From Octopus vulgaris (Eukaryota), in contig OX597819.1 of assembly GCA_951406725.2 (NCBI GenBank), positions 90,210,001-90,274,000 on the forward strand: DNA of 64,000 nt, written 5' to 3'. Below are positions 12,330 through 63,110 of the stretch, in pieces. Numbering within the stretch: the first letter of the stretch is position 1; each line of letters opens with the position of its first letter. The position numbers and the translations under genes are program-made. The notes under the pieces were generated by a model. It did no database searches and was not told the origin of the DNA. It worked only from the letters and a program-made list of their open reading frames with translations.

Positions 12330-12377
12330 TTGCAGTGAACAGGTCGCAGCCTCAAAGCGACGAAAATATTTTGGCAA
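12330..12377 (+). ncRNA. Candidate hammerhead variant with G3-C8 core
   Basis: ttgca-GTGAACA-g-gtcgc(9 nt)gcgac-GAAA-atatt-t-tggcaa. Perfect stem II and palindromic AATATT stem III. Confidence 0.5.
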
Positions 12378-12548
12378 ATTAAATTTTAATATTGAAGTGA
12401 ATCTAACGGATTTTGTGTGTTTTTAAATGGCTTGTAAACACCTTCCACACTGCAATTATTTATATTTCAGCACACAACCTCAGATCAGGTCACTTGCTAT
12501 GCAAGTACATCTCCGTAATATATATATATATATATATATATATATATA

Positions 12549-12835
12549 TCATCATCATCATTGTTTAATGTCCATTTTCCATGCTGGCATGGCTTGATGG
12601 TTTGACTGGGGTCTGGAAAGCCAGGAGGTTGCACCAGGTCCCAATCTGATCTAGCAGTGTTTCTACAGCTGGATGCCCTTCCTAACACCAACCACTCTGA
12701 GAGTGTAGTGGGTGCTTTTTACATGCTACTGGCATGGGGCTCACAACTACAATTTCCATTTGATTTGGTTTTGATATTGCTGATGTTGATGTACTTGACT
12801 CAGCATCAGCCACGTTCTGATGGTGCTTTTTATAT
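12549..12835 (-). mobile_element. RTE LINE 3' end
   Basis: (CAT)n tail and RTE 3' UTR homology. Confidence 0.8.
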
Positions 12836-14064
12836 GCATGCGCATGCAAGCTCAGAATCAGAATATTAGACTTTAATGTTGTGCATCTGTGGTGAATTTG
12901 ATAAAATCTCATCCACATTCTGCTTAGATACTTCATACTGGTCATTACATGTTATATCAAGAGATATGACAGAGTAGTTATCCATCTCCAGTGAAAATAT
13001 GTAAAGCAATAAAGCCTCTTTCTTGGGAATAAAAGAATGGTATAGGTATGTCTAAAGATAAATGTAAGGCATGAAAACAGTATGATTGAATAGCATATAC
13101 AAATATGTGTGTGAGTGTGTGTGTATGCATGTGTATATACACACACACAGATAAAAGAACAACAAACCACTCATATATCATTATAAAGACAATATATCCC
13201 ATTCATGTATACTATTGATGTGTCCTGTCTAACAGATAATAATGTCTTGCTAAAAGAAATTGTAAAGGAGATTGAATAAAAAATAAACAGGCAACACTCT
13301 AAAGAACTGGTTGTAGAAATATTGAAGCTATGGTTTATGGACACAGAAACAATCCTCATAACAATGGCAGTATTAGAAGAAGGTAAGCATGATACAAAGC
13401 AGAAAATTGAGGGACTGCCATATAAAGTCCATAAAATAATACTCCTAGGAAGTTTTCATATTCTTTAAAGCAAATCGATAGAGTATAATAAAAAAAAAAA
13501 AGATGAAATGCTTATAACTGGAGATCTGTATCTCAGAGTTAAAGAATGGCTTCAGTAGAGTATATGTACTTTAAAGAGAATGAGGTTGCAGTGGCAGCAG
13601 TGATGGTGGTGGTGGTGGTGGTGGTGGTGGTGGTGGTGATGGTGGCAGTGGTGGTGAATGGAAGGCTTATAAATGTAAAAAATGTGTAACAAAAAAACTC
13701 TTCTCTATCCACAAGGAAGTTATGAAATACAAAACAGAAACAGATTACACTGAAGCAATAGATTTAGATAAAAAAACAGAAATGGTAAAACATATAATAA
13801 ACTACATGAAAACAAATTACAAAGCAAACTCATGAAAAATGGAAAAGAAAACCACTCCATGGTCAATACACTACAAGGGTATTGACCACGGAGAGGTTTT
13901 CCTTTCCATTTATTCTAGAGGAGAACTAAGCCAAAGAGAAAATCAACAACGGCTTAAAAACTCCAATAAGCAGAAACAGATGAGCTGATGTTTGAAAATG
14001 GAATCATGAAAATGAAACACCAAATACAGGATGTGTGACCAGCATGATGAGACAACTGACTACA

Positions 14065-14497
14065 TCTGGCAGCTGACTTGGCAGACACCCATAAAATTAT
14101 TAACCATCATCATACAAACAATAACTCTGAGCACCTTTTCAAACTCCACCCGTCTTACACTTGTGGGCATATTTACAAAGTCAGAAAACAGCACAGCTCC
14201 CATGATTTTAGGAAACATTTTCTCACGCTGAGAGTTGCTGAAGCATGGAACAAACCACCGGCATCAGTTGTTAGTTGTCAGAGCACTGAATCCTTCAAAA
14301 CTTCCATGCTTTCTGAGATTTTCCAACACTACACCTGATTTTCTCCCCTCCATACACACACAAGCATGTATCTGACTCATACATTGTTCGCTTTCCAGGC
14401 ATTTGTACACTACTGCATACACTTTATATGCACTTTCTGACAAGTTGTGGTGCACCTGAGCACTGTATACAATAATTTCATTATTATTATTATTATA
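14065..14497 (+). mobile_element. CR1 LINE 3' end
   Basis: ORF 14078..14338 (RKHFLTLRVAEAWNK) and an (ATT)n tail. Confidence 0.88.
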
Positions 14498-14883
14498 ATC
14501 TCTAATTGTCTTGCCCTTGCTAAATCTGACTATGTACAAAGGCACGATCATGTTGGCAGCTACATTCACTGGATAATATACTAACACCTCAATGTGAAAA
14601 TAAATAAGAAGTGGTTCAAGCGTATACTGAGTACAATACATGGCACTGACCTGGTCACATTAATCTGGGATATGCCCATCCATACTGACAAGGCAAACTG
14701 TCCAAACATTAGACTTCACAATCCCTTCTGATGAAAATATGGCCAGCAATGAAGTGGAGAAGCTATCAAGATACAAGGCCCTTGAAATTGAAATAGTCAC
14801 GATGCAAAGCATTGGGTTGACAACAATACTAGCAGTAATTGGAGCATTAAGCATGATTTAAAAAAATTTGTAAAGAAACATAA

Positions 14884-59824: not shown

Positions 59825-61346
59825 GAAGAAATGAAACTCGCCAATAAGACATTCTAATATATATATTGGAATAATACCAGTGATATCTTCGAAACATGTG
59901 TCAGAAGTAAAAGAATTTGAATAACACCTGCGTTTAATTCCATTTAATTATTTATATATATTATACAAAATATTTCACTTAAATCCGAAGTTTCTACCTT
60001 TTTATTTGTGTGATTTTTTGCTTCCCTGGTAACTATTTATATACTTTTCCCATGTTAATTGTTAACAAGGGAAAAATACACACATCTATTTATTTATATA
60101 TATATATATATATATATATATACATATATATGTACATATAAGAGATAAATGGAAATTAACTGTGTAGCTGAATATTTCTATGGTAATGTTCATGAGTAAT
60201 ATGATATTTAAAACCAAACTCACACACATACACTACACGCACCCATACACATATTTATGACACCAACATAGAAGGCAGATATTAAATGATGATGATGTGT
60301 ATATATATATATATATAAACACAAATATACACTATTTTAAATGCAATATTACTCATGGACAGCATTTCAAAATATCTCTTTCAAATGAAATATGAGAAAA
60401 ACATTTCTTTAGTTTCATCTTATTTAATATGGAATAGTTCCCGAGTTTCATTGTCCTTTAATTTTCTTTAACCGTTTTTTTTTTTCCTATTTCTTTACTT
60501 TTTGTTTTTCATTTCTTGCTTCCCCCGTTCCCACATCTCACCACTCATGCCTGTAATTTTGAAGCACCATAAATTCTACAGTTTAATGTATTGATATATA
60601 TATATATATGTCTGCAATTGTTGATTGAAAATTTGAGAGTTTCATGCTAAGTTCATGAATTAAGGTGAAACCAAAGCATATCCTTTCCTTCAGAGACGAC
60701 ACTGACTCGAGTGAGGCCAAGAAAAACAATCAACAAGGGTAAGATGAATTGGTGTACTCTATTATTTTCTCCTTGTTAATCTTTTATTTCACATTGCTTA
60801 CATTACTTCAGTTCTTTAGGGTCTTCTGTTGCACGTTCCCATTTACTCATTTGCTAGTCTTTTTCACACTTAGTAACATCTTTTCTCATCAACATCACCT
60901 AACTAGTTGTTCCTAACACATTTCATATATTATCTAATTTTCAGAGATATCTGTATCATTTTGAGATATTGCAAATATCTTCAGGAATTTTGGATGTTCT
61001 AGATTTTTCACTCTAGACTTGTCGTCTGTGTAGAAAAAAAAATAATAGATTCAAGCTGGTGTGTATATGTATGTATCTATATGTACACATGCTGAAAGTT
61101 GGATATGCATTTTTCATGTACAAACACTCACAGTTGTATATGATGTCACGTTTTTCTTATATATAAATGTGTGTACATTTGTGTACATGTACGTATGAGT
61201 GTGTGTGTGTATGCACATATATATATTCATATATATATGTGTGTGTGTGTGTATGTATATATATATATATATACATATATTTATATATATATATATATAT
61301 GTATATATGCATACTTTATTTAAAAGCAGCAGAAATATAACAAAAG

Positions 61347-61384
61347 CTGTTACTCAGAGTTACACATTCCTGTTCGTCAGACAG
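61347..61384 (-). ncRNA. Minimal hammerhead motif with one core mutation (GTAA for GAAA)
   Basis: Minus strand reads CTGT-CTGACGA-aca ggaa tgt-GTAA-ctc t gag-TA-ACAG. All three stems are perfect. Confidence 0.7.
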
Positions 61385-61713
61385 TTTTGTTAAAATCTAC
61401 CGCTGGTATTTGAGTACTCTTTTTTCCACCTTGTTTCACATTTATGTGCTTACTCCGGTATACATATATATATATATATATATATATATATATATATATA
61501 TATATATATATATATTCATATATATATTTATAAATGATAAATTATGATAAATACAAGTTTATATTATTTGTGACCTTTGTGTTGGATGTTCCTAGTACAC
61601 TTGGATGCTGAACTGCAACATATCATCAGGGAAACATTTTATTGCATTATGCTACACAGAACATATGCCTGAAGTTCTATGGGTCTGAAGACATACATAC
61701 ATATATATATATG

Positions 61714-61870
61714 TATTGGGTTGGTGCATAATTATTGCGACTTTTTTCAACAAATTTTATTCAACAAAACCAACAACAATATTTCACAAAAACATCTTTA
61801 AATGATGGTCTGACCGTCTGCCAAGCAAATGGAAACAGTTATTGAAGTAGATGGTGAATTTTTTTATGTG
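61714..61870 (+). mobile_element. Mariner remnant (TIR plus transposase C-terminal piece)
   Basis: ta-ttgggttggtgcataattattgcg TIR and a ..TVIEVDGEFF C-terminus. Confidence 0.6.
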
Positions 61871-61888
61871 AGTTTGCATGTTGAAGCA

Positions 61889-63110
61889 TATACTGTTGTG
61901 TCTAGGGAGAGTCATTCTCTTTTAGTGCCTTTTAATTTAACACACTCACCAGTAAAATTTCCACTTATTTCTTTATTTATTTTTCTAAAATTTTCATTGT
62001 GTCTTGTAACCTTTTCAATAGTTTTGACCCTGTCAGTTATTCACACTGCGTTCCTTTTTGTTTGTTTGTGTGCATGTGTGTGGGTTAGTGTGTGTGTACA
62101 TATACACGCATCTATGTATGTAGTGATATGATCAGAAAGATAGCGTTCGAGTATACAGGGGTGCTAGAAAGAAATTAGATAACATTATATGTAATGATAC
62201 CAGTGGTACCTGCCCTTGATATAGAAACAAAGATTGGAATAGGATACAAAGAACTTGTGACGAAGCAAACAGAGTGAACACATGGTATAAAACTGAAAAA
62301 TATCAAGGAGTGATGTTTGTAGATGTCACAGCCCATGGAGAACTCACCCGTAGATTTAGAAAAGCTCTGAAGGAGACCAAACTCAACATTAAGATTGTTG
62401 AAAAGCCAGCAAATTCCATCAGATCACAACTATGTAGGATGTACTCCTTTGAGAATACCATATGTGCCAATGATAACTGCATGGTATGTAGGATTAGCCC
62501 TGGTATTAACTGTAGAACTAGAAATGTAGTTTACTGCATCAGATGCATAGAAGGTGCTTGTAAAGACATGAACATGGCATACATAGGAGAGACATCTAGG
62601 AGCATTGCAGAATGACTAAATGAACATTTGAGACAATATGACAACAAAAGACAGTCATCCATACTCTACCAACATGGAGGCAACCTGGGTCAACTTAACA
62701 TCCGCATCTTATCCACACACACATTCAGACATGCACACACAATGAGACAGAGGTACACACACACATATACAAACACACATACATAAAAACACACAAATAC
62801 CGACACGCAAACACATAAATATGCAGAATACATACATACAAATGTAGACACATACATAAATACATGCATACACACACATATGCATGTATATGCACACACA
62901 CACACACACACACACTAAGCCACACACATGCACACAAACAAACAAAAAGGAATGCAGTGTGAATAATGGACAGTCAAAACTAATGAAAAGGTTGCAAGAC
63001 GCAATGAAAATTTTAGAAAAAGGAAAGAAATAAGTGGAAATTTTACCAGTGAGAGTGTTAAATTTATAAGGTACTAAAAGAGAAGGACTCTCCTTAGACA
63101 CAACAGTATA
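61889..63110 (+). mobile_element. 5'-truncated Penelope-like element (GIY-YIG region) with inverted pLTRs
   Basis: Inverted repeat 61889-62097 vs about 62903-63110. Coding sequence reads C..C..C..CRTRNVVYCIRC..AYIGETSRSIAE*LNEH. Confidence 0.88.

Follow-up and report, generated by a model that had tools for sequence, protein, structure and literature searches.

The window analysed here is a 64,000-nucleotide (nt) stretch of the Octopus vulgaris genome (contig OX597819.1, positions 90,210,001 to 90,274,000), which carries copies of hammerhead ribozyme motifs, four of them with a core that departs from the canonical C3-G8 pair between positions 3 and 8. From our analysis of the repeat families behind these copies, we consider it probable, at roughly two chances in three, that one of them (family A), a young Penelope-like element, has as a fixed part of its terminal repeat a type I hammerhead of the minimal kind whose 3-8 pair is inverted to G3-C8; such a ribozyme would likely cleave itself slowly after U17 when paired through its palindromes, and likely with the aid of a protein. 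All nine hammerhead cores of the original prediction, which was made from the letters of the window alone, are present in the 64-kb window. Its plus-strand positions (2026, 12335, 35630, and 52801) were exact, while its minus-strand positions lay 33-82 nt too low, the true starts being 27263, 50726, 59818, 61380, and 62018. A strict stem descriptor run over the window recovered 0/9 of these copies because they are decayed, and the motifs were therefore judged through their repeat families in the window's own genome (2.8 Gb).

The family-A hammerhead and its Penelope-like host

In the best 30 loci of family A, a stem I of 7 base pairs (bp) precedes the core GTGAACA; an additional G comes next, followed by stem II (GTCGC/GCGAC) and then by GAA, the palindrome AATATT, and U17, and intact members have the G10.1-C11.1 pair, a 5-bp stem II, and a self-complementary AATATT. 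A genome pattern with positions 3, 7, and 8 left free gave 4,867 exact matches against 0 for a reversed-pattern control; among the first 100 listed, 96 had G3-C8, none had C3-G8, and none had a CUGANGA core, so that G3-C8 represents the normal core of an abundant lineage. When copies were picked by a downstream motif, the whole ribozyme was found in 64/101, with G3 in 61/64, C8 in 55/63, and U17 in 62/62. The catalytic positions (U4, G5, A6, A9, G12, A13, A14, the A15.1-U16.1 pair, and H17) are intact in three loci (L215, L110, and L057) and change at ~3% per site among the 64 copies; they are not kept in the decayed window copies at 52801 and 50726. When folded, an intact copy forms stems I and II (z -3.24), and Rfam gave no hammerhead match to it at E<=10, so that not only CUGANGA-based descriptors, as had been foreseen, but also Rfam misses the variant. 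Contigs from four runs (with four organism labels, which may be close kin) cover the family-A core; among the rows listed, no alternative letter reaches 10% at position 3 or 8, and no starts, ends, or splice joint were seen in the contigs covering the core.

The longer copies of family A (486 matches to an upstream motif) lead to a GIY-YIG open reading frame (ORF) on the same strand. Among 150 scored matches to the family-A protein, roughly the first 80 are 95-100% identical, many copies of the ORF being 96-99% identical, and open frames reach up to 1,025 amino acids (aa). The frame of one locus (L207) has YVDD, a CxxxCxxC linker, and at its C-terminus a GIY-YIG domain (PF01541, above cut-off), and its ribozyme lies ~1 kb behind the ORF stop; another (L215) is a partial tandem, or pseudo-long terminal repeat (pseudo-LTR), in which the ribozyme is followed by an ATG ~90 nt downstream and then by a broken ORF. 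Pfam RVT_1 had no match to the 1,025-aa open frame, and a PDB profile search gave two weak reverse transcriptase (RT) matches only; the homologs are named RT-domain proteins. In a tree of the C-terminal region with 27 rows, which holds no named reference members and whose bootstrap is not fully settled, family A, family C (see below), and a P0001-like element form a clade (100/99), and behind the P0001-like copy stands a C3-G8 ribozyme that resembles family B. Judged by its frame and copies, the family-A host is a young, endonuclease-positive (EN+) Penelope-like element with a linker of the Neptune/Nematis type, and is a candidate member of one of these two clades. The expectation of minimal hammerheads in Penelope-like terminal repeats is thus matched in stems I and II, the extra base, the G10.1-C11.1 pair, the palindromic helix III, and the RT-GIY-YIG ORF. 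The supposed intronic setting found no support, as no host-gene domain was seen in the 130 of 208 open frames scanned. At one further place in the genome (L170, G000:C2:213174500-213184400), three identical G3-C8 copies stand on the same strand 2.6-2.7 kb apart, which is likely a segmental tandem repeat.

Related families and the range of core pairs

The window copy at 52801 (+) belongs to family D, in which a ribozyme is recognisable in 8/25 loci, with G3 in 8/8 and C8 in 7/8 under a locus filter that admitted G or A at position 3 and C or T at position 8. Position 7 is mostly C, loop II is unlike that of family A, and the palindrome is the shorter AATT; 60/83 columns of the 3' flank are the same in the two families. 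Family D is an older relative of family A. A Fisher test of constraint in A versus D (26/33 vs 70/110, p 0.14) was discarded as void, because the alignment displaced the shorter palindrome and the copies sampled from family A had been picked by pattern.

The prediction had also named TTGAAAA cores at two places, and these fared differently. The copy at 62018 (-) belongs to a true U3-A8 family (family C, with a 3-bp stem I and the palindrome AATT), which has U3-A8 in 25/25 best matches; its pattern gave 2,617 genome matches against 0 in the control, with U3-A8 in 92/100 of the first listed, so that 3-8 complementarity holds for both A and C. The copy at 50726 (-) was rejected as a U3-A8 lineage: the 25 best matches of its family (family B) comprise 15 C3-G8 and 3 U3-G8, with U3-A8 in the window copy only, and this lone copy in a mostly C3-G8 family is read as decay. 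A family-B pattern with too short a loop returned 17 mixed rows (7 C-G, 4 C-A, 3 U-G, 2 U-A, and 1 U-U), and there may be an old U3-A8 branch near family B. Separately, we noticed a family-B branch with a U3-G8 wobble (L032, L033, and L040, together with the window copy at 50726), which is a possible intermediate between C-G and U-A. Two further minimal families have U3-A8, namely E (L108 and L146) and F (L417-L422), with the palindromes ACCGGT and ACATGT. U17 and the extra G, proposed as marks of the variants, hold in the four variant copies of the window, but E and F mostly have A17.

Covariation of the stems was found between families. Stem II differs by compensatory pairs among A, B, and C (GTCGC/GCGAC, GTCAC/GTGAC, and GTTGC/GCAAC), and stem I is compensatory as well; by these alignments, three core pairs (G-C, U-A, and C-G) sit on one scaffold. 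The central idea that several cephalopod lineages use cores other than C3-G8 stands with G3-C8 family A and U3-A8 family C, the best of 175 protein matches (57%) being named Octopus vulgaris. We then estimated the range of core pairs with a family-agnostic pattern that excluded C3 and G8, which gave 13,986 genome matches against 180 in the control. Among the first 100 listed there were 59 G-C, 37 U-A, 0 A-U, and 4 mispaired cores, and no family with a mispaired 3-8 was among them. A search for A3-U8 gave 1,385 matches against 970 in the control, and an A3-U8 hammerhead family was rejected, the repeated families listed being without stem I and without palindrome.

Beyond this genome, a descriptor applied to 78 metagenome loci of related proteins found 14 C3-G8, 1 U3-A8, and 2 mispaired ribozymes, and a less strict inspection of ten stretches, taken from nine of these loci, added 2 U3-A8 and 1 doubtful A3-U8; G3-C8 was found in none of the ribozymes of the 78 loci. 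The U3-A8 minimal hammerheads lie in three Penelope-like relatives, L217 (at 22 and 3432, one per terminal repeat), L226, and L227. The A3-U8 core lies in a metagenome contig (L221:2800-2860), with an extra G, stem II, and the palindrome ACATGT, ~290 nt behind a related ORF; its stem I is only 1 bp, and it would be a fourth core pair if real.

Copy ends, cleavage, and competing explanations

We mapped the ends of 100 family-A copies (1/101 was skipped). The 5' starts fall at -25 to -16 in 45/100, further up in 10, and further down in 45; the 3' ends are bimodal, at about +125 (46) and about +185 (54), and an inverted arm lies beside 57/100 copies. Short copies accumulate at one fixed 5' start, whose first letters are AG, at about -23 in family A (L295-L382) and about -60 in family B (L031-L055). 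The fixed start of family A is preceded by a CTAAC...YAG stretch (branch-point/AG-like), and no shared upstream exon was seen in family-A copies; a transcription start is our preferred reading of this 5' end, and a 3' splice site was also considered. Since the inserted copies carry the whole ribozyme and do not pile at the cleavage site, their templates were uncut, and cleavage would not be the main route of insertion.

The self-cleaving G3-C8 ribozyme that we favour would act slowly after U17, and only when two copies pair via their palindromes; minimal Penelope hammerheads are reported to cleave weakly and only as dimers (PMC4209133). The protein of the element would likely help. The G-C swap would preserve the active-site pair: engineered C3G/G8C is partly active (PMC8495972, citing Martick and Scott 2006), gives a partial rescue of the Anolis Penelope hammerhead, which cleaves only with protein (PMC11167929), and was alone in rescuing this motif when pairwise changes were scanned in full (PMC9901934). 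U17 would avoid a G3-C17 trap; pairing of positions 3 and 17 is reported to trap the site, with a G3-C8 variant more active with G17 than with C17 (PMC3884650). In the many short copies, one of two internal 'tail' sites would be where reverse transcription begins, and it would end at the fixed RNA 5' end ~23 nt above the core. Cleavage of an RNA with this 5' end would take off its first ~60 nt, a leader that lies ahead of the ATG, and would thus serve for processing or dampening.

Several observations weigh against self-cleavage of this kind. There is no clear pile of copy starts at the cleavage site (1/100 at +35 to +39 and 6 at +40 to +44), and some 5' starts near -19 are made less exact by microhomology where inverted arms join. 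C8 is altered in 8/63 family-A copies against 4% in the 3' flank. In the predicted monomer, a G3-U17 wobble extends stem I over the cleavage site (-15.4 vs -14.1 kcal/mol), and the dimer minimum, at -32.7 kcal/mol, is predicted to lie below the active dimer, at -28.8 kcal/mol. All four variant-core window copies (12335+, 52801+, 50726-, and 62018-) are damaged. Moreover, the G3-C8 swap is one evolutionary event in the collected data, its copies, although they number thousands, do not count as independent, and chance alone turns one in three double changes into a Watson-Crick pair.

Some of these points would suit a hammerhead relic that no longer cuts and persists as a folded RNA handle, for protein binding or for placing the start of reverse transcription, with G3-C8 kept for shape only. 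Insertion from uncut RNA, the lack of a start pile-up at the cleavage site, and the predicted G3-U17 wobble are all consistent with such a relic. So are the reports that the Anolis Penelope ribozyme is dispensable for insertion in vitro, its mutants being without effect (PMC11167929), and that whole Penelope-like clades go without canonical hammerheads (PMC8557442). Against it stand the positions that matter for catalysis (U4, G5, A6, A9, G12-A14, A15.1-U16.1, and H17), which are all kept in A, D, B, and C while the loops vary, and the catalytic competence of the G-C swap in other hammerheads (PMC11167929, PMC9901934). We regard the relic as unlikely, at perhaps a fifth of the total weight. 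A founder accident, in which two neutral changes in one master copy paired by chance and hitch-hiked without selection on the ribozyme, would fit the single G3-C8 origin, the absence of G3-C8 from the 78 metagenome loci, and a route that requires two transversions through a mispaired state, but it is improbable given that the pair persists across A and D, which differ in about a quarter of their 3' flank columns, that independent swaps to U3-A8 recur (families C, E, and F; L217, L226, and L227), and that no mispaired family is among the first 100 listed of the 13,986 matches.

Beyond the cleaving G3-C8 hammerhead itself, we advance a wider proposal tentatively and at somewhat less than even odds. 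Family A could hold the first natural active G3-C8 hammerhead, fixed in a currently amplifying retrotransposon with U3-A8 and C3-G8 in its close sisters. Their clade would have passed through the 3-8 fitness valley on two or more occasions and regained the pair each time; cleavage would be selected in Penelope elements although the insertion template is uncut, and the ribozyme would be a self-limiting switch by which the element's own mRNA loses its 5' leader. The C3-G8 pair has been proven by laboratory swaps, the natural covariation that we found in print is the transition form U3-A8 only, and a swap by transversion that is fixed in thousands of copies would make the natural evidence for the 3-8 pair complete. 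In practical terms, at least about 14,000 motifs of the window's genome escape standard descriptors. The families also bear on whether hammerheads serve Penelope elements, a role stated as unclear (PMC8557442): sister elements that share one scaffold but have three core pairs, and of which one is young and near-intact, offer a natural series for assays of cleavage and transposition. The G3-C8 hammerhead is a variant of a well-known system and brings no new mechanism.

Copies in the window and comparison with known systems

Family A is represented in the window by a short copy at 12333..12519 (+), with the core GTGAACA at 12335-12341, the extra G, a 5-bp stem II, GAAA, the palindrome AATATT, and U17 at 12371; it begins 2 nt above the core, which reduces stem I to 2 bp, and extends to the second 3' end and then (TA)n. 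A decayed copy of family D lies at 52633..52910 (core 52801-52807, +), with G12 changed to A and broken stems, and is adjoined by an inverted 5'-truncated arm (52633-52780, -). The family-C insertion has an inverted arm at 61864..62080 (-), with the core TTGAAAA at 62018-62012, a 3-bp stem I, AATT, U17, and a broken stem II, and a main arm at 62127..63111 (+). This main arm carries, at 62127-62720, a broken fragment of RT end, linker, and GIY-YIG with 47% identity to the protein of family A, a microsatellite-rich 3' region, a second ribozyme with the decayed core ATGAAAA at 62983, a tail, and (TA)n. The family-B insertion is an inverted pair at 50511..50920, whose minus arm has the core TTGAAAA at 50726 and G12 changed to A, and whose plus arm has TTGAATA at 50813, that is, U3/U8.

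Canonical CTGANGA cores are present as predicted, with one doubtful case. Two identical C3-G8 hammerheads of another young repeat family lie at 27202..27330 (-; core 27263) and 35563..35691 (+; core 35630), with a 6-bp stem I, a stem II opening with U10.1-U11.1, and a long stem III, which might let them work as monomers; further loci of this family are L208, L190, and L187. A decayed C3-G8 hammerhead-like repeat lies at 1990..2107 (+; core 2026), with one related place (L120/L136, which overlap) among the collected loci. The C3-G8 motif at 59750..59825 (-; core 59818) has a long stem II region and no second copy among the collected loci, and is a candidate family only. The doubtful case is the decayed hammerhead-like copy at 61335..61388 (-; core 61380), which reads CTGA and has lost GAAA. 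The four other copies of its family (L023, L041, and two in L072) read CCGANGA, so that position 4 is C, and the canonical look of the window copy may therefore be due to decay, possibly CpG decay. In this family GGAA closes a stem II of 3 bp, stem III is palindromic, and position 17 is A. Rfam listed 150 of 262 matches on the window, and no hammerhead was among those listed, which are microsatellite-driven. An abundant dispersed repeat of ~410 nt, with copies ~90% identical (63131-63551, 5385-5787, and others in the window), is likely a short interspersed element (SINE).

Our literature coverage on core variants (including PMC6765202, PMC8495972, PMC6155905, PMC7151607, and PMC12192606) turned up natural G3-C8 nowhere and engineered G3-C8 only, and Lunse, Weinberg and Breaker or Przybilski and Hammann 2007 could hold a natural one; the passages covered from one of the two supplement files of PMC4209133 contain no G3-C8 core. 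U3-A8, which the prediction had treated as new, is already in print: it is reported in Penelope-like elements of Schistosoma mansoni with about 1,300 matches (Cervera and de la Pena 2014, PMC4209133), and it is named among natural covariations at positions 3 and 8 by Perreault et al. (2011, PMC3088659). The candidate novelty is thus confined to the G3-C8 pair. Among the variants listed in PMC3088659 is U10.1-U11.1, as in the 27263/35630 family here, and G3-C8 is not named in the passages covered.

The closest known system is the minimal hammerhead of PMC4209133, which shares with ours the type I form in a terminal repeat, the extra nucleotide between 9 and 10.1, the G10.1-C11.1 pair, the palindromic helix III, and thousands of solo copies and opposite-strand pairs; its consensus is CUGANGA, with U3-A8 as the only core covariation named in the passages covered, whereas family A has G3-C8. 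Neptune/Nematis-type EN+ elements (PMC8557442) likewise combine RT, a CX2-5CxxC linker, and at the C-terminus a GIY-YIG domain, with partial tandems, an inverted 5'-truncated arm, an optional tail, and (TA)n neighbours; their tail is described as 30-40 nt, whereas it is ~60 nt here and many copies have a fixed 5' start. Non-LTR retrozymes (10.64898/2026.07.22.740005) also have type I hammerheads linked to Penelope-like repeats, but they are described as head-to-tail non-coding arrays, whereas the copies here are dispersed and are solo, inverted, or attached to the ORF of a coding element. In engineered C3G/G8C mutants, finally, the swap is identical and lab-made, whereas in family A it appears as the natural, fixed state of an amplifying element.

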